DNA of 64,000 bases from Nemertoderma westbladi (lineage: Eukaryota; Animalia; Xenacoelomorpha): contig JAUCBJ010007129.1 of the NCBI GenBank assembly GCA_032718475.1, positions 1 through 64,000 of the forward strand, written 5' to 3'. The position numbers and the translations under genes are program-made. This document shows, piece after piece, positions 31,387 through 63,674 of the stretch. Each line of letters opens with the position of its first letter. Positions within the stretch are counted from its first letter, which is position 1. The notes under the pieces are model-generated. The model searched no databases. It saw only the letters and a program-made list of their open reading frames with translations, and was not told the DNA's origin.

Positions 31387-31460
31387 CCGCTCCCAGAAAA
31401 TGGGATTTAATTCTATAAAATATAATAAGTCACAGTCACAAGTCTAAAATATAAAAATAC

Positions 31461-38000: not shown

Positions 38001-39107
38001 CCGCTTCTACCGCCGCCGCTGCCGCTTTTCTTTCCGCTTCTACCGCCGCCGCTGCCTCTTTTCTTTCAGCTTCTGCCGCTGCCGATGCCGCTGCCTTTCT
38101 GTCTTCTATCTGCTTTTTCTTTAGTTGCACTTCTTGGACCCTAGCGATGCGGATTCTTTCATCAAATTTAGCTCACTCCGTGGCTAACATTTCCGCATCT
38201 AACGAGTCTAACACAAATTTGGCTCCCTCACTATTAGGGTGAAATCCAGCTAGCCGTCTCCTTAACTCTTTGTCACCTATAAATCGTTGATAGTCCGACA
38301 GATAGATGTCAATAGCGTCTTTCTTCTGAGGTTTCTCTGATGTCGCTTCGCTTTCCACCTGAGAAAAGGTAGCATCTGTTGACTCTCCGTGGGTCGCGCG
38401 CTCAGTTAGGGGGTTGTTGAAACAGTTGTTCCTCTAATCGCTCCAAAGAGCTGAAGAATCCCTGTACATATCCTGCTGCCGACCTCTTCCACACAGCTGG
38501 ATCTCTAGTGTCCTTTACCACTCCCATCCTGTATAAGTCCTCCCAGGCAACTTCCGATAAGTTAAATGGGAGTCCGGGTCCGGGGAAGTTCCATTGCGTC
38601 TCGACAATAGACCTTAATTCCTCCATCGTATATCCCACATAACTGTCCTTGGTCGATCGCTTACTTCTCGCCCAATCGATTTGATGTTCTTCCACCGCAA
38701 TCAATACTCTAGTGAGTACAGCTCCCAGAAGAATTAGAAGTGGATCTGGATAAACCGCTTCTGCCATCTTTGCTCCGATCTCGGGTGTCAACTCTACAGT
38801 GTCTGAACTACTGGAGTTATCGGGCCGTTGAGAAATAAGTTCCCGGTTCGGGTGCTGCTGCTGCTGCCTCTTGGTCCCGCTTGACTTGAGCCCTAGTGCC
38901 TATGATAGACCAATGGTGCTCTACTAGCCTAGGGTCTGACACTACTACTGTAGGGATGACCTTTCTTACAGTAGGAGGGGACTTGGACTTTGGTCTCAGA
39001 CGTTCTATACTCTTAGCTGAGTCCCAGATCTTTTTAAGACCCTGTCTAACACTCATTCTAACACTTTCTAAGAGACTATCTGACAGTGTTTGTTTTGTGT
39101 CAGACAT
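35054..39107 (-). pseudogene. gag: gag-protease of B1 (frameshifted)
   Basis: KFNGDEMKWLPF..EKLRLLIECLEG, CVLC/CYNC/CAKC knuckles, ALLDSGS. Confidence 0.9.
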
Positions 39108-39254
39108 GTTTGATTGTACAGTTGAATGCCTACTACTATAACGACAGTTAAAGCAAGTCTAGTAATTCAGTATCAACTGCAAGCCTAGTAATTAATTACC
39201 GATACTGTTACTCAGTGTAACGTGATATATATACAGATATATAATATGTTAGAA

Positions 39255-39630
39255 TACCGGTATACACTTATAGTATATATAAGAATTATTACAGACTAGA
39301 ATTAGTCACAGAATACCGGTATATAATTTCAGCATAAATTTATATAAATATATATAATAAGCCTACCGTAAATACCAGTATACAGCATACACTTATAGTA
39401 TATATAAGAATTATTACAGACTAGAATTAGTCACAGAATACCGGTATATAATTTCAGCATAAATTTATATAAATATATATAATAAGCCTACCGTAAATAC
39501 CGGTATACAGCATACACTTATAGTATATATAAGTATTTATACAGACTAGGATTAGTCACAGAATACCGGTATATAATTTCAGCATAAATTTATAGAAATA
39601 AATATAATAAGCCTATCGTAAATACCGGTA
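39255..39630. repeat. ~125-bp unit x3 in the B1 leader
   Basis: ATACACTTATAGTATATATAAG...AATACCGGTA is repeated; B2 has one unit. Confidence 0.8.
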
Positions 39631-41208
39631 ATGTCAATTATTTTAGAATAACTGAATTTCTGAATTTTAGGGTTACTTTCCTTTACTTTATTACTGTTAT
39701 TAAGCAGTAGCCCAACTGATATTAAGACCTAATTAATGTATAACAGGCCTACTATTTTATAAATCGGTTTGAGTTGATTTATAATATATATATACCCGTA
39801 TAATGGGTTTTTGTCAATGTTTGAAATAAATGTTATTATTTCTGGTGAGGAGTCACTACACAGAAGCTGAACGCTCTCAGTGGAGTGCTTCCTGTTAGAC
39901 ACTAAAACAAATAATTCTACTTTACTAAGTTACTTATTACTACAAATTACATACAATTACTGTGTTGTGTGAGATTACAATCTCTAAATAAACACCAAAA
40001 ATTACACATACAAATTTTAGGATAATTTTACAGGAAATCTACAAACCAGCCTAACAAGGAGTTAGAATTTCTGGTTCTTACAAACGGACAGGAAACTACG
40101 GTATTTGATAATAATTAAGCAGTAGTAAATATATTGCTTTGTCCAGATAAGAAAATACAACCGTCTGATGACTTATAGTCTTTAGCTCTACAGCTCTATA
40201 AGTACTACGTTATGTACCCGGAGTGTCCTTACCTAGAAGTTAATTACCGCAGCCAACCAGAGCTAACGTGCCTATTAACCACTTTACAACACAAATATAC
40301 TGCCTATACACTAATTACCTTCGGAAAGTACTGTACACTAAACCCTAAATTAGGTACAAGTACTTATACAACAAATAACCAGCAGTTAAATATACTTATA
40401 CAGCTAAAAGAACCACGGTATCTGCTGGAATAACTAGAGCATAAAATCACCAGTCTTTACCTACGCCAAGCAGCCCTGATGTAGTACCGGGGTTAATTTA
40501 ACTATAACGGTATGTATAACAAGCACAATTACTGTAGCAATAAACTTGGGGAGTTATGTAGGTTGCGAATACTCGCATAGACTCGTGAATAATAAATATT
40601 ACGCTACCCGTGCAGACTACACAAACAAAATACAGACCAAACGCTGGCAGACTACTATCAAGCCTTAATAAACTACAGTATATGCAGACTCCGAAATGGT
40701 TAGTTAGTAGGCGTTCTAACCGAGTAGTACGACTTATTCTTTTGGGAGGGATTTACCTTACAGCACTGGATGCCCCCACCTTCCTAACTAGTACTTTATC
40801 AGACATACACTCTATACACACTGCAATCTCTTCAGACCCAACAACAGTCAGACAACAATCCAGCCTACAAATTATTTATACAATCTGAGCAGGCTTACAC
40901 GCCTTCTGCTCAATATTACTTACAGATAAATAAAACTGACAGAAATAAGTAAAATCCCAATAAAAAACCAGGGCTGCAGTCCCTGATTAAATATCAAGAC
41001 CTACCGGTATATAATTATCAAAATCGAATAATACCTGTTCGTACCTGTAAGTACCGGTTCAGGTAGTTGGGCAGTTAGGCCTACAGCTTACCGTTCGACC
41101 GGTACCTTCGACTTTATTGCCTACGTTTAAAACTTTAGCGAACTTTATAGCGAGTTTAAAACTATTAATGTTCTTACAAGAACATTAGACAATTTGTAAA
41201 ACTATTAA

Positions 41209-42441
41209 TGTTCGCGCTTTTAGACCTTTAGCAGTTTAACCTGCCAATTTTAATTGTCTTTTTTGTATATCAATTATTTAATGTACTGAAGTTACATCAG
41301 CTGAAGCCAGCCTGTGCGCGACCATTCACCCACAGTTAAGGGAGACTGGATTCGGATGCTTTGATAGTGATTGCAGTGTAGACCTACTGTATTATTCAAT
41401 TGATCGTTAATATATAATCTCTGACAATATATTTACTTTCGGGGAAATATTAACAGTTCCTTTAGGACGTGGCACTTTAAGTATAAAACAGAGTTATGAC
41501 TTATACTAATCACAACTGGATGGCTACTGAGTTTCGTAAAAAGTGCATTCTTTAGGAGATGCTTTATTAACCTTCACACTACTTCACACGACTTCACACT
41601 AGTTCACACTACTGCGCACTGATCTGCCGACCGTCACTGAATTTGATCATATATAAGGAGGATCGCAACTGACACATGTAGGGATTATGAAATAACATTT
41701 AATTCACACAAAAACCACTATAATGTAAGTCGCAGTTGCTACCGGTAAACCTGTTCCTCTAACCTTTAGTAATCAAGAAGATTGGGGGTTTTATGATTAT
41801 TCATCGGTATTCTCCAAATATATCAGCAATATACACCAACATAACACCAATTAATAACAGAATCAAATAATGCGGTGAACAGTCAGTATGTGTTACTTAT
41901 GCAGTGTTCCATGTGCGGCAATGTTGACTTGCGGTGTGATGCGGTGTGTTGCGTAGTTGAATTGTGTTGCTTTTCAGTGATTCAGATATGAAGTATGATT
42001 CAGTTAATAGTTTTACTTTCTTGTAATAAAAGCCATCTGATGTTTCTGATGTTTAGGTCAAAGTCTGAAACTTCCAACACAGAAGTACAGAAGAATTTCC
42101 AAGCAGTTCTCTCGCTCAGAAAGGTAAACTAAGACCGTAATGCATTGCGCGGTTTTCCGTAGGCCTCTGTACAAGATAAAATGAAAATCGCTCTGATTAG
42201 CTGAGCTGAGCGAGCTGAACAAAGAGATGTTCCACGTTTACAGTAAATCAGCTGACAGATTTCGTCATCTGAGTTCCAGTCTTTTAGAGTATTAAGCGCA
42301 TTGCGGCAGAAAATGGCTTGTTATGTCCGCTAAAACACCCACACGGTACATTGCGGAGAAAATGGCTTGTTATGTCCGCTAAAACACCTACACGGTATAT
42401 TGCGGAGAAAATGACTGGTTATATCCGCAAAAGCTTTTACA
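41209..42441 (-). repeat. 5' LTR of B1
   Basis: Highly similar to 30113-31386. Confidence 0.95.
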
Positions 42442-42838
42442 AGGGGAAGTAACAGCAGCGGGCGAAGCACTCCCACAGAGGTTGGAGCCGAGAATTAGTA
42501 TATTAGCCAATGAGGGCGAAGAAAGCATCCGCTAGATAGAGAGGCCAAGGTAGTGTAGGAATAACCAATATATATTATATTGGTCAGTTCAGTCATCTCA
42601 GTCATCTAGTGCAGATCGGTGACAATTTCGTACCGTCACCGCCATCATATATATTATATTTACCGGTCAGCATACTATACTGCATATATTACCTGTCAAC
42701 TGTGCTATCACATTTTATATACTATATGAATTAACCGATAACAACTAATATCTTTCACAACGACACGGTGATGCGTGACCTAATACACCGGGATCCCCTT
42801 ATCCCGTCACAGTACGAAATTCCCAACACTGCTAAACT

Positions 42839-44053
42839 GTGACTGCCAGCCACCGAGAAAGAAAGCTAAAGATGAGCACAGAGGCCCGAGACCTAGAGGG
42901 AGAGAGGACACCGCCGCGGACCCCGGACGATACCAACAACCTAACGATCCGCGAGGCCGCGACGAGACGGTATCGACCTACGTTGCCGGATTCGCCGACG
43001 AGAGACGATCCGGCAGTCCAAGCAGAGGGCGGCCGTCTACCAGGGGGAAGGGACGAGTCGACGCACGACGGCGGTCAAAGTACTGAAGTCGCCGGCCAGC
43101 CACAGGCCGAGGGCGATGGACGGCCCACCGGAACGGCGACGGTGGGGCCGCCGGTACGACGCCGAACCAGGAGAGGAGGAGGAGATGTCGGCGATGAGGA
43201 CGTCGGAACCAGCGATCGGCTTCGACGGGCCTACAACGCCACAAAGAAACAGCTCAAGGAGGCCAGAGAGGGAGCAAAGGTAGACCAGGGGAAGTTGAGA
43301 CAGCGACTAGGTGAGTCGAATAAACATTTCAGATACCTAGTTCGTTTCGGGCAGGGAGAACTGGCGAGTGAGAGAGCAAGGGGGGTTGCCACCAAACTAT
43401 TCGAACTGTGGCGATCCGGGATTATGGAGCCCCAAATAGTGTACATAGGGCCGTATTTAGTGGATGCTAGGGGAATTAAGTTAGTGGGTTGGGCAGACCC
43501 GCACGAGGGCGAACCCGAGGTTAACTCCGAGGATTCAGTCTCGTCGGTTAGCGAGAACCCCGGAAAGCGGGGGAAAGTTGGTAGGACAGAGAGACGACGG
43601 GATTCCGTCGCGACCGACAAGTCTGCTACATCCTCCGCAAAAGCAAGAAGGGTGTTAGAGATAGATCTGGCGTGTCAATTAGACATTGCGGCGCTAGACC
43701 AGAAAGAATTAGAGAGGCAGTTGAATGAGGGAACTGCGTTGCTAGAGAAAGAGAGAGAGTTAGAGACGGAGACGAGAGTAGAGAACGAGCATAGAGAGCG
43801 GGTTGCGAGAGAGACAGAGATAGCGGAGCAAAGTTTACGAGAGGATAGAGAGAAAGAGAGAGCAGGAAAGCGTATGCGGGATGATATGCATGCCCGGCTA
43901 AGGGGGCTTATGCAGTATCAGGCCAAGCAGAAGCGCCGACTAGAACTGGCGCAGTTGGGATTATCAGAGAGTGAGGCTGGCTCGGGTAGTGTTTACGAGG
44001 AGCCAGAAGTAATGGAAACGTTTGTTAATATCCCACTTACAGGCCCCGGATGA
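42839..44053 (+). CDS. Gag-like N-terminus of element D (coiled coil); probably continues, decayed, to ~46255
   Basis: Follows the putative LTR and has an E/R-rich coiled coil like BEL Gag N-termini. The Asn-rich continuation is split by the Penelope insertion. No diagnostic domain was seen. Confidence 0.45.
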   Translation: MTASHRERKLKMSTEARDLEGERTPPRTPDDTNNLTIREAATRRYRPTLPDSPTRDDPAVQAEGGRLPGGRDESTHDGGQSTEVAGQPQAEGDGRPTGTATVGPPVRRRTRRGGGDVGDEDVGTSDRLRRAYNATKKQLKEAREGAKVDQGKLRQRLGESNKHFRYLVRFGQGELASERARGVATKLFELWRSGIMEPQIVYIGPYLVDARGIKLVGWADPHEGEPEVNSEDSVSSVSENPGKRGKVGRTERRRDSVATDKSATSSAKARRVLEIDLACQLDIAALDQKELERQLNEGTALLEKERELETETRVENEHRERVARETEIAEQSLREDREKERAGKRMRDDMHARLRGLMQYQAKQKRRLELAQLGLSESEAGSGSVYEEPEVMETFVNIPLTGPG

Positions 44054-44318: not shown

Positions 44319-45366
44319 TATTTTATTCTTTAATTGTCAAGCTGAAGTAAAAAACCTTACCGGTAGGTATGCCAGTACAGTACGATACAAATACTAAAAT
44401 AAAATGCAATTGACCATTAGACGTTGCATGCAATCAGTGATCAGCTGACGGCTGTCAGCTGATCAGTAGGTTTCGATCCAATGGGGGCTTTCTCAAGTAG
44501 CTAGTGCTAGAAAGGAGACAATAGATAGTAGTTCCCAAGGGAGACGGGACAGTAATGTGAAACAAGGTAGAAGTGTATCCGTCTAACCACTGGGAAGCAG
44601 CACCTCAAACTTGCGCCAATCACGTTTCTGCTTGTTAATAGCTGGCTGGCGAGTGCGTATATAAAACATTTCTAGTTTTTAGAGCCAATCACTGCGCCAA
44701 TTGGCCAATTGGCCAACTGCGCCAATCACTGCCATCATTGAAACATCCAGTTCCAGATATTCTGGCTTCTAACGTCGTGTATTCATTTGCTTGTCCCTCT
44801 TGTAAGGGGGAATATGTTGGACATACCATCCAACACTTATTTGAACGCGTTAGACAGCATCAAGACGGGTCGGCCAATGATGGTACGAACAAGGCAAGAC
44901 AGTTCACAACCATATCATGACGCACCGCGGGGAGCCCAACACACATTGGTTGACCGACTGGCGAGAGTTGTTCAAACACTTCAAGGTTATTGCACGGCAC
45001 CCTTTGCGTCCTGTCCTGCAAAAACTAGAAATGTTTTATATACGCACTCGCCAGCCAGCTATTAACAAGCAGAAACGTGATTGGCGCAATTTTGAGGTGC
45101 TGCTTCCCAGTGGTTAGACGGATACACTTCTACCTTGTTTCACTTTTTGGGAACTTCTATCTATTGTCTCCTTTCTAGCACTAGCTAATTGAGAAAGCCC
45201 CCATTGGGGCGAAACCTACTGATCAGCTGACAGCCGTCAGCTGATCACTGATTGCATGCAACGTCTAATGGTCAGTTGCTTTATATTTTAGTATTTGTAT
45301 CGTACTGTACTGGCATACCTACCGGTAAGGTTTTTTACTTCAGCTTGACAATTAAAGAATAAAATA
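44319..45366 (+). mobile_element. Penelope-like element 3' fragment with an inverted pseudo-LTR
   Basis: GIY-YIG remnant NVVYSFACPSCKGEYVGHTIQHLFERVRQH ... LEMFYIRTRQPAIN. Inverted arms at 44319-44680 and 45021-45366. Confidence 0.85.
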
Positions 45367-46255: not shown

Positions 46256-47430
46256 TGTTCGCGCTTTTAGACCTTTAGCAGTTTAACCTGCCAATTTTAG
46301 TTGTCTTCTTGTTTATAAATCGACTTTAGCCTAGACCAATTATTTTATGTACTGAAGTTATATCTGCCGAAGCCAGTCTGTGCGCGATCATTCACCCACG
46401 GTTAAGGGAGACTGGATTCGGGTGCTTTGACGTTATTGCGGTGTAGACCTACTGTATTATTCGATTGATCGTTACTATATAATCTCTGACAAATATATTT
46501 ACTTTCGGGGAAATATTAACAGTTCCTTTAGGACGTGGCGCTTTAAGTATAAAAACAGAGTTATGACTTATACTAATCACAACTAGATGGCTAATGAGTT
46601 TTGTAAATAGCGCATTCTTTAGGAGATGCTTTATTATCTGTCACACTACTGCACACGACTTTACACTACTGCACACTGATCTGCCGACCGTCACTGAATT
46701 TGATCATATATAAAGAAGATCGCAACTGACACTTGTAGGGATTATGAAATAGCATTTAATTCACACAAAAACCACTATAATTTAAGTCGCAGTTGCTAGC
46801 GGTAAACTGTCCTCTTACCTTCAGTAATCAAGAAGATTGGGGGTTTTATGATTATTTATCGGTATTCTCCAAATATAACAACATATCCAACAATATACAA
46901 CAATTAATAACAGACAGTAAGCAGAAGTAAATAATGCAGTGAAAAGTCACTGCATTTATTTATTGGTTTAGTATGATATGCAGTGTCCAGCAGGTTCATC
47001 AGGTTGATATGACAATATGAGAATAGATTTACGTTCCGTAATCAAAGCCATCAGATCTTTAGGCAAAGTCTGAAACTTCCACCACAGAAGTAACAGAAGA
47101 TTTCCAAGCAGTTCTCTTCGCTCAGAAAGGTAAACAAAGACCGTAATGCATTGCGCGGTTTTACATAGGCCCTTGTCCAACATAAAATGAAAATCGCTCT
47201 GATTGGTTGAGCCGAACAAAGAGAGGTTCCACGTTTACAGTAAATCAGCTGACAGATTTCGTCATCTGAGTTCCAGTCTTTTAGAGTATTAGGCGCATTG
47301 TTGGCTTGTTATGTCCGCTAAAGCACCTACACGGTACATTGCGGAGAAAATGGCTTGTTATGTCCGCTAAAGCACCTACACGGTATATTGCGGAGAAAAA
47401 TGACTTGTTATGTCCGCAAAAGCTTTTACA
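46256..47430 (-). repeat. 3' LTR of B2
   Basis: Same termini as the B1 LTRs, with an adjacent PPT. Confidence 0.93.
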
Positions 47431-47508
47431 CCGCTCCCAGAAAATGGGATTTAATTCTATAAAATATAAAAAATCACAGTTTCTAAAATATAAAAATACT
47501 CTAAACAG

Positions 47509-50500
47509 TTAGTCCGTCTTACGCGAACGGCGTTTACGCAGTTTTTTGAGGCTAGCAAGAGTCCTTTTCTCTTTGGGGCAAGCCACTTTACTAGGAGGGC
47601 TATAACTCCTGGGTGAAGGGTGCAATACAATTGCATCGGAAGGTTTAGGGTTACGGTCGGTGTATCCGCCGGTCGAGGTACCCGGTTGATTGATATCAAC
47701 CTCAGCGGAGCGAGGTTGAACAACCCCCAGAGCGCGTTTCAAGACAGCAGCTCTTACTGGTCCCTGACGAGTCGTCTGCACGAGAGCGGTAGGTGGACCG
47801 TGAGTAGTGAGAAATTTCCTCAGTTTGATGGTTCTTTCTAACTCGCGTTCTCGGGCTCTATATTCATAGGGTCGTCTATGAACTTCCTGTAGTTCTGGAT
47901 GCGAGTTGATGAACAAGTCACCATATTCAGGATCTTGATGGATGAAGTTGATCAAGTTATAGGAATTAAGATCATTGGGATTAATGTTCCTGAGATATTT
48001 ACGAACAAATTTGGTCGAAATATTCTCGCCAACACGCTTCATTAGTTCGTAACTCGGTGTGCGAGATTTTTGTTCAACGGACGCGAATAGATACGGGTGA
48101 AACGCATAAACTCACTCATAAGCATGTCCAGGGTAATATCCAGACGTGACTCACAATGTAGATCCGCGTTCGCTTCCCAGGCTCGAATATAGTGTAAGGT
48201 AATCATTTCATCTACGCTTTCCAGATCTCGGTTGAAAGGGCAATCAAAACTTGCATGTCCTTTAAACTGACAATGATGGCATTGAGTCATAAATTGGGGG
48301 CAGACTGCAAAAATGTGCAAGTTATTGAGTCTACAATATGCACAATAGATCTCCATCGTAGGTTGTTCATGGAAGTAGGAACAGGGTACGTTGGAGTCCA
48401 CCGGGGTGAAATGGTCTCGAGATGCACACAATCGACAACGTTTCCTAGAAACATAATTGGCATGCCGATAATCGTAAGCGGTGAGGCATTGTGGACCTTG
48501 ATACCATTCCAGGACGTAGTCATTGTCACTGCTCCGGGGCGCTGTGGGCTGGATCTCCTCGGATTCTAAGCATATTGGTTCGTCTTCCAATCGCATAGCT
48601 GAGGTAGGTGTAGCTGTCTCCTCAAGCGAACCCAGTGTCTGAACTTCCACGATAGAATAACCCGTGGGGATTCGGGGTCTTTGTATAACAGAGGAATGTA
48701 AGTTCTGTATACCAACGTCCTTGAAAATGGCGAATCCAGCGCTGTCTAACTTCTCAGCAGCTGAGTCTCTTAGGCTGAGCTTGGTCAGAGCGCGGTCCTT
48801 GAACTGACTATCAACGTTACGGAACGGAGTCAGAAAGCGCCTAAAGCATTCGAAGCGGATGAATTTATTGTGTTCATCTAGCTTGGCGAGTTTGGTTCCA
48901 AGTATCAAGGGATGGGTGCGTATAGTACGACTGCACACATCGGCTAGCCAACCGGCAAGTGTGGCGTTCTCGAAGATAGTGTATATAGCTAATGAGGGAC
49001 AAAGGGGAACACTCATGAAGCTATACACGACGCCAGGTGTGGTCAATGGTCCATCGAAGTATAATAGAGAATAATGATCTCCATATACTTGTTGATAGTT
49101 GATAGGGTTTCCGACTTTGAAATTCCATCTGTATTCTTGGAAGGCAAGATGTCCGATGGATGTTCGTTGTACTTTATTGATGCCGCTGGGTGTATTGGCA
49201 TACATAGTTCGGAAGAAACCTCGGCCTTCTGCCCAGGGAGCAATCAGCTGGGTGTCTACGAAAGGATATGGGATATTCTCCATATTCCTGAAGTCGTTTT
49301 GGAGATCTCCATAAACAGCTGAGCCGAATTTAAAGGATTCTTTCGTTAAACAACATCTCGAGCACTGGCTGGGGTAACATCGATCCATCTATACCCATGG
49401 CCAGTTTACGCTCAGTATCGGTGACGTAACGCTGTGCGAGTTCGAATTGTCCATGTCGGAGTTTCTTTTGTATCTCGGTGAGAGTCTCAAAGGAATAATC
49501 AATCACATCGGAACACGCTCGAGTAAACACGTGAGTAGAACCAGCTAGCCCTCGTATATGTATCATGCGCGACGCGCATGATACATATACGAGGGCTAGC
49601 TGGTTCTACCCACGTAGTTCCCAGTTCTCCAACAGGAATGCTACCTTCGTTATCGTAAGTGACAACTCCATACATTTCGATAACGTTAAGAGTTTCGTTC
49701 CACTCTTTAGTGGCGTTTTCTAGGGTCATCCCCACCGGATGCCACAAGGTGGCACATTCGCTAGCGTTAGGTAGATCCCTATACTTCAGATATTGTGTAG
49801 TATACGTCTCTACATCTCCATATCGTTGTATTCTCTCTTCCTCGAATAATACGTCGAGATTCCAGTGGACTAATCGAGTTTCAATAAATCCATCGAGATT
49901 ATACGGAGGCATTATATCCTTCTCTATTCTGGAAACATTGTAGGGCTTTCTGAATGAGTTTACTTTCACTAACTGATCCAGATGTTTCTGCAGTTGTTCA
50001 AGTTCGACAAGATCGAGGGGATTTATTAGTGGTAGAAACCTTAGACTATGTGTAGGATCTTCCGGTATTACCATATAATATTGAGTTAGATTGACATAAT
50101 AAGGGTGGTCTTTGATCCCATAAAACGAGTTCGGTAAAGGTCTAGCGCGTATGTTGACCTCGCGTACCATACGACGGACAAGATCTGCTCGATTGTCCGG
50201 AGGTTCAACGAGTATACCGTCGATACGAGCGGCCTCGATTGGCGGACGTTGCAACATAGGAGCGTCAGCGATAAGATCACGAGATCTTAGGTTGATATCA
50301 ACCGGTTGGGGTTGTACCGTGGCGAAGAGTTTGTCTCCGAAATGGGGAACCATCGAGGGATGACGGATGGTTTTGGAATAGAGATCAGTCATAAGGATTT
50401 GAGCTTCAGGTTGGGCTAAAGCTGCTTCTTCTCTCTCACCCATTTCGATGTGTTTCTCCTCGAGCTGATTTTCCTCCGCTTGTCATTGGAAGCGTTCATC

Positions 50501-51805
50501 TAAAAACTCTTGTAGAGAATAGGTTCGTCCAAGTTCGATGTCTTCCTCGAGGTTTTGGATTTCTCGATCGAACTGGGGTAAGGCCAATTCCTTTACTGCT
50601 TGGACTTGCTGCTGCAACTTACGTTTCTCCAAACAATCATAAGTTCCTTTTCCGATCTTCTGTTGAATAGCGTCTAACGCGTTTCGTACAACGCTCTTCT
50701 CGACTTCGGTGACGGGTTGTATCGGGGTCAAACCGGGACGATTATACGGGTTGAACGGCGAGATTAGATGTCCGCGTCCTAATCCGGCTAGGTAGGATGG
50801 GCGAATATCTAGAGAGCCCACTACCGGAGTGCCACCGATTAATTGTTCGGGTAACACGAGATCTTTGAACAGCGAGTACAGTTCAGGAGGATCCGTTATA
50901 CTATTACGATCAAGAGTTTGAGGTCTCACTAAGGAATGAGGAGGTCTGACTGAGTATTCTGGAACTCTGATCATCGGTTTATTTAAGGATCGTTTGAGTC
51001 GAGCGAGCGTAGGTGATACGTCGAACAAGTTTCGCTCGAAACTCCCGTAAGTATAGCGAGTAAAACTGTGTTTAGCGCAACGTCTCCGCGGATGTTTATG
51101 TCTTTCCATTTGCTGGTTGGGTCTAGGGCATTCATCGCAATAATACCAAAGACGCACGTCCTGTAGGGGAAACGCGGGTGATCATTCTCCAGTTTTACAA
51201 TATTCCTCCATTTGTTCGAAGCTTTCCGGGACAACAGGTAGCAGTCGATCGGCGGTAAGATAAATCATAGTGAAATAGAGCCGTTTGAGTTCCATCATAG
51301 GGTCATGATGTATACCTTGAGGATATCGAATTTCTAGATTTTGTTGACTGGCTATATTGAGATATGTTTCTCTCAAGAATTCCAGATATTCGTTGAAGTT
51401 ACTGCGTTTATCTGGCTCTTCAACGTCTTCTCTTTCGAGTTGGTTGTGAATAGAATTTTCGTGTTCTATTCTCGGTTTATCGTTCCGACTCCGCTGGGTA
51501 TGATATTTAAATATAACCATGTCCCTTTCGGTGTCTACATCGTCCGTATCGTGTAAATCGATAGGATGACCAGTAGTTAAAAAGTCCATATACGTACCAT
51601 TACAATGCGTATAGCGAGCGATGAATTTTCTATAGTCTAATTCACGCGTGAGCTGTTACTTTGACATTGGCGGTTCGATATAACGGCCATCGTCTTCCGT
51701 AGTGGGTGGACTAGCGTCGCCGCGTATTAAACTATCAACAAACGCTTGCAATGGTAGGGTATATCGCTCCCTGATACCAAGATCATCTTCTATCAACTCA
51801 GTCAT
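47509..51805 (-). pseudogene. ORF3 of B2: CxxC..CxxH region, DEDDy-like exonuclease, Zn knuckles, basic tail
   Basis: TYDNEG (49643-49660), MLPQPVLEMLFNERIL/KFGSAVYGDL, FVDTQL, YTIFE; then CRLC..H, CAYC..H..C and CHHC..H..C. Several frameshifts and stops. Confidence 0.8.
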
Positions 51806-53516
51806 AGCTGCTATATGAGTTAATCGATATTATAATTAATTATAATTAGGCTAGCGGTCGTCGCTGCCTACCCCTCAATGCCCCCGGACAGCGCAAGCTC
51901 CTCAGCGCTAATGTACTGTCGCCGCTGTGTCTTTCGCCAACGTAGTAGCTACACAACGACAACAATAACCAGCGCGAGTCACTCCACTGTCCGTCCCAAG
52001 GGCTCAGAATTACTTCAGGTTCTTGCTATAGAGGTAGGGCTACTTTCACAACTGCGACTCGCTACTGCAAACACACTTTAGTAGTAACATTCACCTATAA
52101 ACGCACAAATTCCACACAACTGTCACAAATTGTACACATTCGGGCCATTTGTCAGTTAGTCAAGTGCCTTCCAGAATGCCACGTTATTATTATGTATCCC
52201 TGGATACTAGCAGTGTGCTATTTATTCCGTATGCTATTCAATGGGGCAAGCTTTTTATTGTTCTTTTAACTCACTTCTAATTCTAGCGTGGTTGTTGCCA
52301 TGGTGACATTATGGAAAGCTAGCAGTAGAATTAGGGTAATTCTCATGCATACAGATCTGGGATGCTATTTAATAGTAATTCTTTAATTGTCAATATTCCC
52401 CTTTATACATGATTTTATGAATTTTATCGGCCATTGACTATATTATTGGAGATTCTCGCACATTAATATACTTATAGGGTGAATCTCCGCTCCCATGATA
52501 TATAAATTAATGGAATTTTGGGAATGTTATAAATTGTATAAAATGACAATTTATCAAATTCATGAGAGGAGATGAATTTAAAATTTATTCCCGTAAATTT
52601 TATTATTTAATATTAAAATAGACACAATTTTATTCCAGAACATGTCTGGGGACTAGGATCCTTAATTCTAGAAAATTTGTCTTTTTAAGAGTATCGGTAA
52701 GTGCTACAAATATCTTAATCGACTAGAATTTTAAAGGATCTAAATTTTAACAGATTTTGATTTATAGATTTTCTAGAGTTAACTTGTAAGCATTTACTCT
52801 ATTATATTTGTTTTAATAGATTTTTATAAATATTAAATATTTAATATTTAAGATGGGCACCGATTTATTCCAGAACATGTCTGGGGACGTTAACGACTGA
52901 TTCTAGAATTTTGTCTTTCAAGTATATCGGTGGGTGCCGCGATATCTTAATCGACTAGAATGGCAGATGGTCAAAGGGTTTAACAGATTTATTTTGCGTT
53001 TTATGCTACTGTTAAAGGGACATCACGCTACTATATGTATTATTTAATATACTGTATGAGAGCAATATTGCAAGAAGCAATGTCAGTGAGAAGAGGCAAG
53101 TCGTTTCCCAGGTCTACCCAGATCTTGGTTTAGCCGAGACACGAGGATCTGAACTTTGCATTCCTAATACTCTACTTACCAATAATACTTGAGTATAGTA
53201 GGAGCTTTATTGTACTTTAATAAGTACGGATATTTCATCTTACTGTAGTCACGTATTTATAATATGATACGGACAGTAAGGAAAGAGAAAAATAATTATT
53301 TCTCGCCGTTGCACTAAATATATAATGTTAAGTAATTAAGTAATAAACACGAATATATATTGCACTAATCTACTGAATAATCGCTAAAATAACATTCCAC
53401 TAAATAAAATTAAAGAAAACGATTATAATAATAAAATTACGTAATAATACATACATAAATATAAAAATAATAAAAATATATAAAATAATATAGTCACACA
53501 CCCACTCCAGACGCGG

Positions 53517-54677
53517 TTACGTTGGGGAGTCCCTAGATGTTTGTTGGATTAGGGAGGTGGTCGTGGGAAGAGTGTTTTGTCTTCCATAGTTTCCGGATAG
53601 TTCTCTGTCTCTTTCCAGTAAACATAAACGACCAACTGGGCGATTGAGTTGCTGTGTTTCGAATACAATTCCAGGTTTCTTAAAGTTACGTCGCATGACG
53701 ACGAGTTCTACCGATCGCACTAAACCATCATCGGATATATGAGTCTCGATGATACGACCTGTCTGCCACCGCTTACGTAGAAGATCTGATTCCACAATAA
53801 GGACCATGTCTCCGGCGCTGACGTTTTCTTGCTGCGCAAACCACTTGGTTCGAAGTTGTAGCGTAGGCAGATAATGTTTTTCGAAATGGTCAGCGAAACG
53901 ACGGGATAATAACTGCATAAGTTGCCAAGTTTGTCGGCAGTATTCGTCTCCGTCCATGATTTCCGATCGTGGGAGCATGGCTACAGGTTTCTTCAGTAGG
54001 AAATGCGTGGGTGTTAGCGCTTCTAGGGAGTCGGGACTCGATGAGACTGGCATAAGCGGTCTCTCGTTAAGATAGGCGGCAATTTCTTCCATTAACGTCC
54101 GCAAAAGTTCGTCGGTGAGATACGCGCGGCACGGCACTATAAAGTGAAATGCGGTCTTCACGCTCCTTATTAATCTCTCCCAACTTCCTCCCCACCAAGG
54201 GACGTCGGCGGCGTTGAAGGTCCAGCTAGATGCTGTTACCCTTAGCTGATCGTCCACCTGTCTTTGGTTCCAATCTTTAATGTAAGCCTTGATCTCATTA
54301 TTGGTGCCAATGAAGTTCGTTCCCTTATCAGATCTCATCGTGTTGCTAGTTCCAAAGCGAGCGATCTGTCGGCGTAAACTCAGTATGAAGCTGTTGGTAG
54401 ATAGATCATTCACCATATCTAGATGGATCGCTCTACAAGTCAAACAGACAAAGATGACACACCATTGCTTGACTATAGTCCTAGCACGATAGACTTCAAT
54501 AGGGCCAAATAAATCCACACCGGTATTAGTAAAGGGTGGTTCATAGAAGCTTACTCGTTCCCTAGGTAATTCTGCCTCTCGCTGTGTTAAAGGCCTACTG
54601 AATGCTTTCCTACAGGGTATACAGTTCCTAAGAACTTGGTTCAGAGCTCTACGGGGTTTATGGAAATAATAGCGAGT
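53517..54677 (-). CDS. Integrase core of B2
   Basis: DLFGP, SDKGTNF, WERLIRSVK, LNERPL, LTPTHFL. Confidence 0.92.
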   Translation of the reverse strand, partial: TRYYFHKPRRALNQVLRNCIPCRKAFSRPLTQREAELPRERVSFYEPPFTNTGVDLFGPIEVYRARTIVKQWCVIFVCLTCRAIHLDMVNDLSTNSFILSLRRQIARFGTSNTMRSDKGTNFIGTNNEIKAYIKDWNQRQVDDQLRVTASSWTFNAADVPWWGGSWERLIRSVKTAFHFIVPCRAYLTDELLRTLMEEIAAYLNERPLMPVSSSPDSLEALTPTHFLLKKPVAMLPRSEIMDGDEYCRQTWQLMQLLSRRFADHFEKHYLPTLQLRTKWFAQQENVSAGDMVLIVESDLLRKRWQTGRIIETHISDDGLVRSVELVVMRRNFKKPGIVFETQQLNRPVGRLCLLERDRELSGNYGRQNTLPTTTSLIQQTSRDSPT

Positions 54678-56918
54678 TCAAATTTCGCTAAGAACTCGTT
54701 CTCTACCAGCATGGTAAAGCCTACTGTGAACATCTACAATCATCATGATTTGTATTTCAAGATTTCTAATGAGTATGGGAAACTTAATGTCAAAGGATAG
54801 TGGAGCATTAGTTAGTCTCCCTCCAACACGTATTAAACCATCTATCATTGTGCTAGAGAAACGATCCCTTAAGCGCGTCTGTGGATTTCTCAACAACAGG
54901 AAATACTTATCGGAATCTTCATAGCATTGCAGGAGTCTCAGTATCTGCTTATTGGTTTCTTCATGCTCCTGGTAACTGATCTTCTCCTTCAGAAACCTAT
55001 CCGATACTTTGTATTTGGGAAGATCTTTAATAGCAAGGACCTGCTCGGATGTCAGTGGAGCGGTATCACTAGCGATCTTCGTCCTGGAGTAGTGATGATG
55101 GAAGCATCGCTTCAAATACACGACGGCCTTACAATGCCGATTCCAGGAGCTATAGTGATTTATCGCTCTCTGCAGGAGAGGTGAGAGTCCCTGCGAGACG
55201 TCTGGTGTTCCAGATTTCCAGTCTCTTTCTCTAATTTCCACAACAGACTTATTTGTGGCGGGGGAGTTTAGATCCACAGCGTTATCCCCGGAAATGTGTA
55301 GTACAGACAGATCTATCACGGGTTTAAATAACTTTGATTTACTCGTCCGGGTTTTGGGTTTGACTTTCTCCGCTCCCTTGGCTTGTCTAATCTCAGCCGT
55401 GGTGAGATGAGGAGGCCATTCATCCTCTTCTTTACTTAGGAAGTCGGGTCCACCTAACCAGTCTGGAGTATCTATCAGTTCTTGAGGAGTTGCTCCTCTG
55501 CAGGCGATGTCGGCTGGATTAATCGTCCCAGGGCAATGTCTCCATTGATCTACATTAGTGCGACTATGTATAATGGCTACTCTGTTGGTAACGAAGATGC
55601 TGAACTGACAGACTTCATTGGTTATATACTCCAAAACGAGTAAAGCATCAGTCCAATAGACAGTTTTCTCCAGTGGATAGTCGATCTGTTCTGTTACATT
55701 CCGGCCGATGGCTGTAGCGTATAGAGCCGCCTTTAACTCCGCTCGAGGAACTCGTAGTTTGTTGTTTATCAAGGCCTTAGAGGTAACCAAGGCAACTTTA
55801 ATTCCATCCGGAGTTTCAACCCTCAGGTAGGCTACTATACCTATTCCCATATCGCTGGCGTCTCCAAACACATGGAGTTGATAGGAATACGTGGGGAGAA
55901 CGTGACCAAAATATGAATGGGAAATCGTAAAGTTCTCGATGGATGGTAGATAATCTTCCCATTTCATCCACTTCTTTAGTAGTTCTCCCTTAAGTGAATC
56001 GTCCCACGAGTGGTTTTCAAGCCACATTTGTTGCACTAAACTCCGGGCAACCAATATAACTGGGCTAATAAATCCCAACGGATCGAAATAAGTGCTCAGG
56101 ATACTTAGACAAATCCGTTTAGTTCTAACTGGATTATCTCGCTTTTTTAGCTGGAAAAACAAGATATCTCTCTCCGTGTCCCATTTTAAACCAAGTGTTT
56201 TGGTTTCCGGAAGATCATCCTTGATGAGGTCAAGATCTTTAACACCTCGGTCTTCTACCGGGATCGATTCCAGAAACTCACGGGAGTTACTAGTGAATTT
56301 GGTTAGCCGAAATCCACCACGTTGCAAGCACTCCACCATTCCCTTGGCAACATCAGTGGCTTCTTCCACCGATGGGAGGGACTTTAAATTGTCGTCCATG
56401 TATATATCCCCTTTGATGTTGTCGATAACTGCTTTAGAGAAGGCATCTCGGTTGTCATCAGCAGTGGTACGCACTACTGAACAAGCGTTCGAGGGGCTCG
56501 AGATGACTGGATGGGATGGACTGGACTGGATGGTCATCCAGTACTCCACCAGTTTTAGGTTGAGATCTCCTTCAGGCCACCACAGAAATCGTAGGCTGTC
56601 TCGATCCCTATCCAGCGCCTTAACTTGTAAGAACATGCCTTCTATATCCGAAGCAAAAGCGATAGAATATTGCCGTAATCTTAAGAGTATTCCCAACAAG
56701 GATTGGAGTAAGTTGGGTCCCGGCAACAACTCAGAGTTAAGGGATTGGCCCATGTAAAGGGCGGAGCCGTCAAATACTACCCGGACTTCGTTGGGTTTAC
56801 CGGGTTTGGGAACATAATGATGTGTTAGATAATACGTTCTCTCAGTTATGGGTGTTTCTTCCAGTACTCGCTCCGCATATCCCTTATCGATGAATTTCTT
56901 CAGCTGGGTCTTATACAT
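54678..56918 (-). CDS. pol: RT/RNase H of B2 (ends at a premature stop in the IN zinc finger)
   Basis: YYLTHH, RVVFD, YMDD, FDPLG, FGDAS, NPADIACRG. Confidence 0.92.
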   Translation of the reverse strand: MYKTQLKKFIDKGYAERVLEETPITERTYYLTHHYVPKPGKPNEVRVVFDGSALYMGQSLNSELLPGPNLLQSLLGILLRLRQYSIAFASDIEGMFLQVKALDRDRDSLRFLWWPEGDLNLKLVEYWMTIQSSPSHPVISSPSNACSVVRTTADDNRDAFSKAVIDNIKGDIYMDDNLKSLPSVEEATDVAKGMVECLQRGGFRLTKFTSNSREFLESIPVEDRGVKDLDLIKDDLPETKTLGLKWDTERDILFFQLKKRDNPVRTKRICLSILSTYFDPLGFISPVILVARSLVQQMWLENHSWDDSLKGELLKKWMKWEDYLPSIENFTISHSYFGHVLPTYSYQLHVFGDASDMGIGIVAYLRVETPDGIKVALVTSKALINNKLRVPRAELKAALYATAIGRNVTEQIDYPLEKTVYWTDALLVLEYITNEVCQFSIFVTNRVAIIHSRTNVDQWRHCPGTINPADIACRGATPQELIDTPDWLGGPDFLSKEEDEWPPHLTTAEIRQAKGAEKVKPKTRTSKSKLFKPVIDLSVLHISGDNAVDLNSPATNKSVVEIRERDWKSGTPDVSQGLSPLLQRAINHYSSWNRHCKAVVYLKRCFHHHYSRTKIASDTAPLTSEQVLAIKDLPKYKVSDRFLKEKISYQEHEETNKQILRLLQCYEDSDKYFLLLRNPQTRLRDRFSSTMIDGLIRVGGRLTNAPLSFDIKFPILIRNLEIQIMMIVDVHSRLYHAGRERVLSEI

Positions 56919-56992
56919 CTCTTTAGCTGAAGCATTGGCCGTAAGACGCCGATGTAGTTGTGCGATTCTCTTCTCCGCTAAGGGTCGATTAT

Positions 56993-59900
56993 TTATAAAG
57001 TTGGGTTCTCGCCGTTGGAACGGAAGACCAATCTCATATCTACCTTGATCTTTAAGAAAACGGGTAGTCGTTTCCTGAATCTGCTTGGCTCTTTCCTCCT
57101 CGACAGATAGGCCTTATCGTAGGAGTTAGGGTCTACGGCATCTTGAGTAAATAATCTTACGGCGTGTTCATCACGAATCTTATCGTGGTATCGATCTATC
57201 ACCTCATTTATTTCGTCGTTGTAGTCGAATTGTCCGCCATGATTGATGAGATGGCACAGGTTCACTTGGTTTCGCCAAGTTTCATTTTGGGTGAGGAGGT
57301 CGATTGTATTTTCCTCATCAAACAATTGGTTAATATCGTCATTATCTGAGGAGTAGGGTGTTCCCTCAGTTGTGGTCTCTCCCTCACTGATTTCTTCTCC
57401 CCATTCACTCACCTGATGTACTTGGTCGTTAGGTAATCTTTCCATGAGTGTTCTACGGGAAGGTCCAGTGAAGTACCAACCTAATCTCGTTTTTCCCACA
57501 TAGGTTTGTAATGGTTGTGGTCGAGCAGGCCGTTTTTCCAATTTCTCTAGTGCCTCATGCGCATTTTGGCCGATCAATATCTGTACCCCTGGGTAGTCGG
57601 TGTTGAATCTAGGGATATCATGCTGCTGGGTAAAATCGTCTTCATCCCAGTTGTAAGATTCTACTTGGCTGGTAGCAAAGTTCTTTATCGCCACCATTTT
57701 TACTGACCTTATGCTATGTTCTCCTAGTTCATCCTGGGGAGTGGACAACGCGCCAACATAGTAGTCTGTAGCTACTGTGGATTTCCAAACCTGCATAATT
57801 CCTGAAAGGTTCAACTTAGTTTGGAACTTGGGTTGTCCAGCAAAGATGTCTTTGGCTAGTTCTTTGTTGATAAATGTTCCTGTGCTGCCGGAGTCCAGGA
57901 GGGCGTTTACTATAAAACTCTTACCTGGCCCATGGACTCTCAGCTGAACTACTGGGAATTCCCGAATTCTGACGTTGGAAGTTGGCGCTGTCCAAGATGA
58001 TTGTCGGTCCGGAATAGTCGATTGGACTTCATTATCGGTTTCAGTCTCATACGTAAGCGCTCGATACACTGCGGTGTTTATCATATAACAGGATTCGTTT
58101 TCGTCGGAGAATTCGTCCGTGTAAAATCCTTCCATCTCAGAGCTGTGGTCAGTGTCGTTCACATCACTGAATTGGACATGTAGTTCGGACTCACTTACCT
58201 GATTCGTGCTGGTTCTTTCAAATTCTGTGTGCAGCAAGATATGATGTTTCGCGCCGCACTTAGCACACCTCGCGTCGGAGAAACAGGTTCGCCGTTGGTG
58301 TCCTTGTCTGAGACAATTATAACACAACCGCTTATCCCACATGACATCACGTCTATCCTTTAGGGATTTCTTCAAGAATTCATCACATCCACTTAAACGA
58401 TGGGGCCCGTCGCACAATGCACATTTGGGTTTGATGTTACTTACTTTAACTTGTGTGGTGTTCTGCACACTTGTTCTTTCCTCGGGCTTTCTTCCATGAA
58501 TTCTCTTAGGAGACGTAGGAGGAGTTTTTGTTACCTGTTCTCTCCTGTCACTGTTTCGAGACTTAGATTTACTTACGTCTTTCGGTGTTTTGTTGACATA
58601 GTAAGATCTTTCGGTGTCTTTCCCGCTGTTCTCCTCGTGGGAGGTTTGGCTTTCGCCGTCGTCTGTACAACACACTGGTGTTACCTTTCTCCTAGAAACG
58701 GGTTTTTCACTCACCTTATTTTCCGGTGTCTTCTCTCGGGACTGCTTTAGGAGCTGTAATCTTACCTCTCCATTTAAGAATGATATGAGATCAGCCATGG
58801 TAGGGTCTCTTTGTTGCTGGTCCATCATATAGAGCCCTCTTTTGTCCCAACGCGTACCTACTCCACCCTTCGGCAAAGTAGATGCCACAGCTCCAACAAC
58901 CATAGAACTCTGATGTTCATGAGACTTACCTAGCCAATCTAACTGTCTACAGATCTCCTGGATCTCATCGGAAAATTCTATAATCCCATTCTAAAATCCA
59001 TCTGGATGTCCAATAAACTTTAACGCCATTAACTTGGGAGGTCCTTCCAAGCACTCGATGAGGAATCTAAGTTTCTCTCCGTGGGATAGTACGGAACTCT
59101 GTATGTTATCTTTATAATATTCATTAAAAGGTAACCATTTCATCTCATCTCTGTTGAACTTAACGATCTCTCCCACCTTTACCGCTTGACGGGCTTCGGT
59201 TCTAGCCATTTGACGTGTAAAACTTTCTTGGGCCATTGTATTATTTAATATCGAGTTATCGGTATATAAATTTCTCGGATTATGATCAGGTCTATATGGA
59301 ATATCATTATCAACGGGTTTATAATTATCCTTAACAGGGTTTACTATAGGAGTTTCTACTTCACTAGCAGTATAGATGCGCGTAGTCTCCACACCTTGCG
59401 CATGAAATACTTCCAAACCACACCTTGAAACCACAGCATGAAATACTTCAGACCTAACAGGTTGACACATTGTTACAGGGGGTGGTGGTATACCCTTTCG
59501 TATATTTACTAACTTATCGCGTTCTAACGCGATGCTCTGCTGTACTTCTTGTAACTCTAACCTACCCTCTCTTACTGTTCCCTTTAACTGCTGAACAGTC
59601 CCTTCCATCTCTCGGACCTGCTGGGAGGAACGCAAGCGCTGTTCCTCCAATTGTCCGAGCAGGAGATCCATCCCCCGCCGTCCCTCATCCACCCACTCTA
59701 CCGCCGAAGCGGGAGCCGCCAACATTGTAGCGGGTAGACAAGAGATGACGGGCGACAAATCATTGATGTCTCGCTCGGCGTCCAGGACTGGGACTGATTC
59801 AGGGGCTATTCTACTGGGCACAGGTAGTTTAGTACTGTGCAAAGGGAATTTAGAGTTAGGTTCTGGAAGTACAGGGGTCTCTATCACAGAGGGGGTGGCT

Positions 59901-61659: not shown

Positions 61660-62019
61660 GTTTGACTGTACAGTTGAATGCCTACTACTATAATGACAGT
61701 TAAAGCAAGTCTAGTAATTCAGTATCCACTGTAAGCCTAGTAATTAATTACCGATACCGTTACTCAGTGTAACGTGATATATATACAATATATTAAAATA
61801 CCGGTATACACTTATGGTATATATAAGTATTATTATAGACCAGGATTAGTTACAAAATACCGGTATATAATTTCAGCTTAAATTTATCGAAATAAATATA
61901 ATAAGCCTATCGTAAATACCGGTAATGTCAATTATTTTATAATGACTGAATTTCTGAATTTTAGGGTTACTTTCCTTTACTTTATTACTGTTATCAAGCA
62001 GTAGTCCAACTGATATTAA

Positions 62020-62802: not shown

Positions 62803-62879
62803 GAACGCTGGGTTCTTATGTTCATTTCAACCCCACCAAATCTATTTAGAGGCCTTCAAGCAGTCAAATAGCATCACAA

Positions 62880-63670
62880 ATACTGAAACGAGCTGTCAAA
62901 ACGCTTTAGTTAGAGACATTCTGGCTGCATTTTAAATACTGAAAAGAGCTTTTGAAACTATTCAGGCCTTTGCGCAGCATATTAAATACTAGAAAAGAGC
63001 CACTAAAACTGTTCAGAGTCCTTTGTGCAGCATGATAAATGCTGAAAAGTGCTGTTGAAATTGTTCAGAGGGTATCATGTATCATGAGAAAAACTGAAAA
63101 GAACTGATAAAACTGCCCAGGGGCCTTCGCACAGTTTGAAAAATACATAAAAGATCTCTCAAAGCTGCTCAGAGACCTTTGTGCAGCATGATAAACGCTG
63201 AAAAAAGATTTTGAAATGAAACTATTCAGAACTTTGTGCAGCATGATAAAAGCTGAAAAGAGCTGTTGAAACTGTTCAGGGGTCTTCGAGCAGCTTGAGA
63301 AAGACTGAAAATAACTTTTGAAACTTTCAGGCCTTCGCAGAGAAGGTGAAATACTGAAAAGAGTTGATAAAACTGTTCACAGAGTTCTTCATGCAGCATG
63401 ATAAATGCTGAAAATAAACAGTTGAAATTGTTCACATGGCTTTGTGCAACATGAGAAAAGCTGAAAATTGCTGTTGAAAGTTATAAAACTGTTCAAAGTC
63501 CTTCATGCAGCATAAATGCTAAAAAATAATATTTGAAGTTGTTCAGAGGGCTTTGTGCAATATGAGAATGCTGAAAATAGCTGTTGAAACTGTTCGGATG
63601 CCTTCGTGCAGCATGATAAATGCTGAAAAGGGCTGTTGAAACTGCTAAAAGGCCTTCATGCAGCATGATG
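62880..63670. repeat. Degenerate ~59-bp satellite
   Basis: Recurring GCAGCATGATAAATGCTGAAAAG..CTGTTGAAACTGTTCAG. Confidence 0.85.
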
Positions 63671-63674
63671 CATG

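Follow-up and report, generated by a model that had tools for sequence, protein, structure and literature searches.

What does the third open reading frame (ORF3) of some unusually large BEL/Pao long terminal repeat (LTR) retrotransposons encode, and how was it acquired? We addressed this question in a 64,000-nucleotide stretch of the genome of Nemertoderma westbladi (Xenacoelomorpha; assembly GCA_032718475.1, contig JAUCBJ010007129.1, positions 1 to 64,000), hereafter called the window. It is rich in repeats and contains BEL/Pao elements, recognized by their Peptidase_A17, DUF1759 and DUF5641 domains in Pfam searches. In two divergent families, A and B, ORF3 sits between pol and the 3' LTR. 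The reading that we favour, with slightly less than even confidence, is that ORF3 was acquired once by a clade of large BEL/Pao elements, has been kept under selection and codes for a likely DEDDy-type 3'-5' exonuclease that would trim element RNA.

Element A (5777-28685, forward strand) has an ORF3 of 1,048 residues (22712-25858, in an open frame spanning 22601-25858), with a basic tail and no Cys/His knuckles. Family B is represented on the reverse strand by B2 (46256-62019, lacking its 5' LTR), with a broken ORF3 of approximately 1,250 codons, and by a deleted copy, B1 (30113-42441). The initial annotation placed the B2 gene at 48042-50482; the locus was correctly identified, but this span is too short: the start is an ATG at 51805 (gene 48042-51805), and similarity to A (E 1.6e-7) continues beyond 50482. 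It had also reported that, once two frameshifts are repaired, B2 aligns block by block with A through eight pairs of motifs despite no evident nucleotide similarity. This description holds. All eight pairs are present in the same order, in one open frame in A and in three reverse-strand frames in B2 (YDNEG at 49657-49643, the block starting with IHIRG together with IDGSMLP at 49563-49372, and the part starting with KFGSA from 49331 on). In nucleotide comparisons of ORF3 the best sensitive blastn match has an E value of 0.26, in contrast with pol, at 56-60% identity.

The protein alignment is significant, with a tblastn E value of 9.6e-26 and 31% identity over 262 columns. Three tblastn blocks join A ORF3 to B2 (E 9.6e-26, 1.6e-7 and 1.4e-4), and a local alignment with X at the breaks is collinear over A residues 59-766 (approximately 700 residues). 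Its scores exceed the maxima of 200 shuffles in the nuclease (306 vs 52), N-terminal (129 vs 53) and middle parts (61 vs 54). Because a single alignment spans this region with scores beyond those of shuffles, the entire ORF3 is, judging by its sequence, homologous between A and B, including an N-terminal finger outside the span first annotated. The latter, of the Cx2C...Cx2-3H type (23156-23248, forward, in A; 51068-51139, reverse, in B2, where it reads Cx2C...Cx2H), belongs to no known family in Pfam. A 200-codon frame with a basic tail that overlaps the end of B2 ORF3 (47509-48111, reverse) bears a weak likeness to the A C-terminus. Its interpretation as a continuation of ORF3 was unsupported, as 13 of 1,000 shuffles reach its score and it shows no third-position bias (7/12/6).

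The B2 copy has frame breaks near 49.6 kb and 49.35 kb, and stops at about 51.66 kb and 51.18 kb that are found in B2 only. The first break looks private to this copy, since contigs from other copies differ from B2 there; a short inverted duplication is located at the same place, near 49.53-49.63 kb. Another stop (50483-50485) is shared with B1, where the matching codon lies near 31865. Its CAA-TGA-CAA context is of a type known to be leaky; approximately 30 bases surrounding the stop are the same in both copies, and synonymous changes follow immediately. Rather than damage, the stop may reflect programmed read-through, or ORF3 may here be truly divided into two genes.

By their pol and gag domains, in the order protease, reverse transcriptase (RT), RNase H and integrase, both families fall within BEL/Pao (Peptidase_A17 E 8e-42 in A and 8e-35 in B), and their RTs are approximately 40% identical to those of 80 BEL/Pao loci. 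The Belpaoviridae, described only from metazoans, are 4.2-10 kb long and tRNA-primed, with an env-like third gene (PMC8742986). A and B share with them the Gag-protease-RT-RNase H-integrase order, Peptidase_A17, DUF1759, DUF5641, LTRs, a polypurine tract and a third gene after pol (PMC8742986; PMC3118150, available excerpts). They differ by their size of approximately 18 kb (about 17.8 kb for A with its internal duplication subtracted, about 18.5 kb for B as estimated from B1 and B2), by the lack of a tRNA primer site and by a nuclease-like third gene. No transmembrane segment was found in either ORF3, with maximum hydropathies of 1.4 (A) and 1.5 (B), and we therefore rejected an env-like role. 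Judged by pol, on which the family assignment rests, A and B are atypical BEL/Pao members.

A divergent exonuclease-like core

The core of ORF3 has counterparts of the three motifs of DEDDy enzymes. They are found at 24119-24133 (ExoI), 24383-24397 (ExoII) and 24707-24721 (ExoIII) on the forward strand in A, and on the reverse strand in B2 at 49643-49657 (ExoI-like D-x-E, YDNEG), 49302-49316 (ExoII-like Asp, VYGDL) and 48969-48983 (ExoIII-like Y-x3-E, YTIFE), the last with a Glu in place of the Asp of canonical enzymes. A search of 1.84 billion proteins with an A+B profile (HMMER) gave two matches, P0001 and P0002, and no cellular exonuclease at E 0.001. We rejected P0001, a PKD-repeat protein, and retained P0002, a 648-residue protein known from a single ENA record, as a true relative (E 1.7e-7). 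A, B and P0002 all read D-x-E, D and Y-x3-E, thus keeping four acids and the tyrosine. The ExoI residues and the ExoII Asp are invariant among them and align with those of bacterial DEDDy domains. In a 32-row joint alignment the only invariant columns are the ExoII Asp and the ExoIII Tyr, and the D-N-E of A falls on ExoI.

The core is more recognisable in P0002 (Pfam DNA_pol_A_exo1 E 0.2; E 0.007 against a hidden Markov model (HMM) of 49 bacterial DEDDy domains), with a score of 11.9 bits for the PF01612-type Pfam signature, under the cut-off of 23.6. For A, a language-model search of the ESM Atlas gave a score of 0.92, and PF01612 accounted for 24 of 30 hits. True members typically share 170 features, more than the 161 seen here, and partial proteins fall outside the calibration of the score. 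HHalign of the A+B+P0002 profile against the 49 bacterial domains gave 84.7% (E 6.7e-6, 46 columns). In the shuffle controls, which were confined to 17 WRN-like rows, the three-row profile scored 22.5 against at most 17.6 in 30 shuffles. There is also a weak DnaQ match over ExoI (E 0.042).

Other results count against this assignment. Neither A nor B matched an exonuclease in Pfam or among PDB sequences, HMMs of bacterial DEDDy domains gave no significant match to A or B (best E 0.97), and an unguided structure model failed, with a predicted local distance difference test (pLDDT) score of 31. Without P0002, the A+B profile reached only 36.9% in HHalign against the 49 domains, and against the WRN-like rows its score (15.8) was no better than those of shuffled columns (maximum 22.4). 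In addition, the ExoIII Glu is found in none of the 49 bacterial controls. The label 'exonuclease' in the initial annotation is well supported by the motifs, the ESM Atlas and HHalign, but no curated family confirms it. Taken together, these data make a very divergent DEDDy-type fold very probable for the ORF3 core.

A model guided by the 32-row alignment reached a pLDDT of 62 and a predicted template modelling score of 0.61. Its top structural matches are all DEDDy enzymes (best Z 12.1, root mean square deviation (rmsd) 3.4, 163 aligned residues), with Z scores of 10.4-11.1 for Nibbler, WRN, RNase D and EXD1. Foldseek placed EXD2 first (E 2.8e-4), yet with an rmsd of 17. Because the guide rows are DEDDy enzymes and impose the fold, the model indicates compatibility with it only. 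Relative to cellular WRN, EXD2, Mut-7/Nibbler, EXD1 and RNase D proteins (PF01612), A and B have the same succession of D-x-E, K-x-G...D, DT, G, K and Y-x3-acid and a compatible fold in the guided model. They differ by their identity of approximately 12-20% to aligned bacterial members, large insertions, the ExoIII Glu and scores under all curated cut-offs. By their residues, the ORF3 cores are DEDDy-like, set apart from canonical DEDDy domains by this Glu. The latter may represent a new DEDD active-site variant, and no paper with the term was among those listed in a literature search for data on Asp-to-Glu replacement at ExoIII.

P0002 has the exonuclease-like core with Y-x3-E, a linker and three knuckles. 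The long N-terminal region of A and B and the block that both have downstream of ExoIII are missing from it. It is 25% and 29% identical to A and B, respectively, which are 36% identical to each other. B2 has three Cys/His knuckles (48240-48437, reverse), as the initial annotation had recognized. Two of them are regular (Cx2Cx5Hx4C and Cx2Cx4Hx4C, the latter being the one exact CCHC knuckle; Pfam zf-CCHC_3 E 0.004, under its cut-off), but the third is degenerate (Cx2Cx4Hx9C). The triple array has a counterpart in P0002 (E 5e-5 to B), whose knuckle pair matches retroviral nucleocapsid (E 1e-4). The knuckles had been regarded as added in B. They are probably ancestral and lost in A, the more parsimonious scenario, since P0002 has the array while A and B are closer to each other than to P0002. 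RNA binding may be mediated by the finger, the knuckles and the basic tail.

DEDDy-exonuclease ORF3s are already known in bdelloid rotifers, in the LTR retrotransposons Juno1/2 and Vesta2/5 and in Terminons (PMC5408684, PMC6431247, PMC5718144 and PMC6338049, available excerpts of each), and what is new here is the BEL/Pao carrier. According to the same excerpts, the rotifer proteins are likewise non-env, encoded downstream of pol, of DEDDy 3'-5' exonuclease type, devoid of transmembrane domains and altered by one Asp-to-Glu change. Their carriers are Ty3/gypsy or Penelope-like elements with LTRs of 159-551 bp and a DEED motif, whereas those of the window are BEL/Pao elements of approximately 18 kb with the change at ExoIII (DEDE-y). 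Compared by description only, the A and B proteins are further distinguished by their 1,050-1,250 residues, their N-terminal finger of no known family and, in B, the three knuckles. We found no published report of a DEDDy or exonuclease ORF3 in BEL/Pao, in searches that largely covered literature other than subscription papers and Repbase; the main texts of PMC3118150 and PMC9094657 do not contain the word 'exonuclease', and its sole occurrence in PMC11662393 concerns long interspersed nuclear elements. A and B extend this nuclease cargo to BEL/Pao. Malik, Henikoff and Eickbush may have noted, in 2000, an exonuclease-like domain in a nematode Cer element, which, if right, would lower the novelty of this finding.

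Self-complementary primer sites and the possible role of ORF3

The typical tRNA primer site of BEL/Pao was not found in A or B1. There is no TGG near the end of their 5' LTRs, the first one being 145 nt (A) and 238 nt (B1) past the LTR, and the window contains no tRNA gene. The primer-binding position pairs with the element's own LTR. It comprises 11 nt in A (7691-7701, forward; complement of 6634-6644 in the 5' LTR), 13 nt in B1 (41196-41208, reverse; complement of 42004-42016) and 12 nt (1009-1020, reverse; complement of 1782-1793) next to a third, B-related LTR (1021-2260, or 1009-2260 with the primer site) that is 64% identical to the B1 LTR over aligned columns. In all three, the complement is perfect and starts at the first base after the LTR. 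Such lengths were reached in 5 (A), 1 (B1) and 0 (third LTR) of 3,000 Markov shuffles, and none of 345 later leader offsets equalled the primer-site match in any element. Each site matches its own LTR only, with cross-matches of 5-7 nt. Between B1 and the third LTR, the segment occupies the same aligned place, and 4 of 12 pairs are changed on both sides, i.e. compensatory, while the next pair toward the LTR end is mismatched in both. In B-type LTRs, a conserved TATA/initiator-like block lies approximately 360 nt downstream of the complementary segment. In the B1 leader (41150-41208), a second copy of the LTR end and primer site occurs some 40 bases beyond the first.

At the sequence level, the self-complementary site together with its covariation is the signature of Tf1-type self-priming. 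In the available parts of their descriptions, Tf1/Tf2/Tj1, Tf1/sushi and plant Tcn1 and TAR elements also have a primer site after the 5' LTR that is complementary to an 11-13 nt LTR segment (PMC4600332, PMC5341516, PMC6317226). Those are Ty3/gypsy or copia elements with no accessory exonuclease described in these excerpts, and in Tf2 the RT is described as making the cut. We found no published report of self-primed BEL/Pao elements in literature searches, including the available parts of PMC3601003.

DEDD enzymes take nucleotides off 3' ends; RNase T and RNase D are among those that stop at duplexes. The ORF3 product could thus be a metal-dependent enzyme that trims single-stranded 3' ends of the element's own RNA. 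In such a scheme, the LTR segment of the element RNA would pair with the primer site, a cut would free the primer segment, and the exonuclease would trim the unpaired tail to the end of the duplex, which falls exactly at the LTR boundary, where RT must start. Reverse transcription would then start from a primer finished by an accessory enzyme, and A, as a naturally open copy, offers a defined candidate substrate, the self-primer duplex. Primer maturation is the most likely single job for ORF3, although taken by itself we hold it only tentatively. We consider it rather unlikely that the complete scheme applies, namely that a giant, tRNA-independent BEL/Pao clade encodes a DEDE-y exonuclease as a primer-maturation factor trimming RNA to the self-primer duplex. 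In the excerpts available, 3'-end processing of element RNA has been proposed as a role for the rotifer DEDDy ORF3s (PMC5408684).

Several observations argue against a role in priming. The Tf2 RT is described as cutting the self-primer in the accessible part of the report (PMC5341516). Among six metagenome BEL/Pao loci without exonuclease, five (L147, L176, L180, L189 and L213, with none in L203) have a complement of 10-15 nt across a GT..AG gap in the LTR, a result reached in 0-1 of 100 shuffles. Exonuclease-less loci, seven of which had shown complements of at best 3-7 nt, had seemed suitable as controls without self-priming; the intron-split complements led us to reject this use. Because five of six such loci also carry complements, self-priming is, by this evidence from sequence, wider than ORF3 and does not need it. 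The primer segments of A, B1 and the third LTR are unsplit, unlike those of the exonuclease-less loci.

The existence of self-priming BEL/Pao elements without exonuclease would favour another possibility, to which we give a limited probability, that ORF3 is a counter-silencing nuclease. It would act on precursors of Piwi-interacting or small interfering RNAs or on antisense transcripts, or jam the EXD1/Nibbler/Mut-7 step, and protect the element in trans. Nibbler and EXD1 are neighbours of the guided model (Z 11.1, rmsd 3.6, 170 aligned residues, and Z 10.4, rmsd 4.1, 176 aligned residues, respectively), in a tie with other DEDDy enzymes and with the circularity of that model. Near P0002, the ESM Atlas has an EXD1-like cluster (0.77, a lead only), and an arenavirus DEDD exonuclease suppresses innate sensing (PMC3429428). 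In contrast, small RNAs still cover the rotifer elements that have a DEDDy ORF3, and a clear gain in copy number is not evident for these elements in the available part of the study (PMC5408684). B1, which has a target duplication yet lacks RT and nuclease, and the deletion forms described below fit supply in trans and do not separate trimming of element RNA from its alternatives.

It is improbable that ORF3 is a catalytically dead RNA-binding scaffold, similar to EXD1, Maelstrom or Egalitarian, whose site would be inactivated by the Asp-to-Glu replacement and whose function would be to bind or carry the RNA of the element. The ExoIII Glu common to A, B and P0002 and absent from the bacterial controls, together with large insertions in the core, would suit such a protein, and inactive RNA-binding DEDD derivatives are known (PMC5408684, available excerpts). 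However, the rotifer ORF3s, with their own Asp-to-Glu change at another position (DEED), were judged possibly active in the same excerpts, in which their exonuclease activity is undemonstrated. A, B and P0002, with pairwise identities of 25-36%, have all four carboxylates and the tyrosine in common. These five catalytic positions belong to the 34 columns, out of 197 in the three-way alignment, that are invariant; of the 26 acidic columns as a whole, only 9 are. Dead DEDD proteins usually lose catalytic residues, and their retention here argues for a working metal site. Catalytic activity of ORF3 despite the ExoIII change is thus probable.

Inheritance and selection

ORF3 appears at the same position in both families, and A and B are 30-36% identical in ORF3, 43% in RT-RNase H, 44% and 37% in two integrase blocks, 33-37% in gag blocks and 24% in the protease. 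ORF3 conservation is therefore within the gag and protease range, and below that of RT-RNase H and the best integrase block (43-44%). In a FastTree RT tree of 71 rows (A, B and 69 of the 80 metagenome BEL/Pao RTs, 11 being too short), A and B are sisters with a support of 1.0. An LG+C20 tree of 40 non-redundant rows also groups them, with an SH-like approximate likelihood ratio test value of 99 and a stem of 0.64. Against this, the tips of A and B are the two longest in the tree and the reference RTs were taken from other samples, which may inflate the grouping.

Variation among copies is mostly synonymous. Contigs covering the B2 region fill all 30 bins in four runs, and those covering the A region do likewise in three of these four; the latter contigs include one of 1,887 bases with 8 differences and one of 981 bases with 183 differences. 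Among A ORF3 substitutions drawn from the 40 best supported of 220, 17 of 23 are at third positions and 17 of 23 are synonymous. For B, where the set was 40 of 1,399 and we left out one site between frames, 21 of 30 are at third positions and 20 of 30 are synonymous. Between B1 and B2, the ratio of nonsynonymous to synonymous rates is 0.22 across 569 codons of gag and protease and 0.16 across 390 codons of ORF3, all in its 5' part, as the nuclease is missing from B1. B1 (33100-34700) and B2 (51885-53480) have 97% identity in the noncoding spacer that separates pol from ORF3, whereas synonymous sites of ORF3 differ by 23%, which could reflect either constraint or recombination. The B spacer contains a 167-bp direct repeat.

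The same position, the collinear homology beyond the core, the sister RTs and the mostly synonymous variation support a single old acquisition of ORF3, inherited and kept under selection. They agree with the first interpretation of the locus, an ancient gene under selection and not a recent passive capture, as does the absence of a cellular exonuclease at E 0.001. That the gene also defines a lineage, as first proposed, goes beyond the data, with ORF3 seen in just two families of a single genome and in none of the 80 other BEL/Pao loci. ORF3 would nevertheless have been retained by selection for a long time in both families, which are separated by a deep split.

We consider it very unlikely that there is no shared inherited exonuclease, i.e. 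that the DEDD-like motifs arose by chance or that A and B took up related genes separately. The blank searches of standard families would fit this view, as would the history of rotifer DEDDy ORF3s, for which the excerpts of PMC5408684 describe two or more acquisitions and transfer from one element class to another, and long-branch attraction could account for the grouping of the two RTs. Against it, three divergent proteins have the three motifs correctly ordered and spaced, with support from the ESM Atlas and HHalign, and A and B share both flanks of the core, which P0002 lacks, a similar polypurine tract and sister RTs. We regard as slighter still the chance that ORF3 is a proofreader that removes mismatched cDNA 3' nucleotides and permits about twice the usual size, like ExoN in large RNA viruses, as suggested by units of approximately 17.8 and 18.5 kb versus 4.2-10 kb in Belpaoviridae (PMC8742986), by DNA proofreading domains among DEDDy folds and by the same idea raised for closterovirus DEDDy genes (PMC8297929, available excerpts), because much of the extra length consists of ORF3, long LTRs and spacers, the long RT tips do not suggest high fidelity, and the knuckles point to RNA binding.

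Further searches for relatives of ORF3 gave no match. Word-based searches retained 0 of 1,933 candidates for A region 440-770, only P0002 itself among 7,989 for P0002, and 0 of 2,942 for the three-row alignment. No ORF3 relatives were found in metagenome or viral contigs or in plasmids, PHROGs gave no relevant match, and no BEL/Pao RT or integrase was found in viral contigs. None of the 80 other BEL/Pao loci has an ORF3 match, with only 16 of the 67 that have an integrase match extending at least 1.5 kb past the integrase. In a BEL/Pao locus that is possibly a chimeric contig (L152:5221-6351), an AstE/AspA deacylase frame lies downstream of the integrase.

Other features of the window

The LTRs of A (5777-7690 and 26748-28685, forward) are 1.9 kb long and 98% identical, with TA...TA rather than TG...CA ends. 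No target duplication was found at the ends of A, and its left flank, near 5777, is a 24-bp tandem array. Within its BEL/Pao gag-pol (8485-22000), 5.1 kb is duplicated internally and the integrase region is interrupted by frame breaks, and a polypurine-like tract (26734-26747) adjoins the 3' LTR. B1 has TG...CA LTRs (30113-31386 and 41209-42441, 96% identical), a polypurine tract and a 5-bp target duplication. It retains the 5' part of ORF3 (31829-33020) and lacks the exonuclease, the knuckles, RT and most of the integrase. B2 has a TG...CA 3' LTR (46256-47430), a polypurine-like tract resembling that of A (47431-47444) and a broken BEL/Pao gag-pol with Peptidase_A17 and DUF5641 (53517-61481), all on the reverse strand. 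Contig joints in 47660-51450 reveal several deletion forms that remove the nuclease region, one of them B1-like in two runs and another in three runs; they are probably non-autonomous derivatives.

Outside these elements, a non-LTR retrotransposon fragment (RVT_1, DUF6451) lies at 4140-5270 and an unannotated 405-codon frame at 42836-44053. Inverted repeats in 44319-45366 flank a short frame (about 44777-44920), which we take to resemble the GIY-YIG endonuclease of Penelope-like elements. Degenerate tandem repeats occupy 62870-64000, with a 12-bp array at the end.

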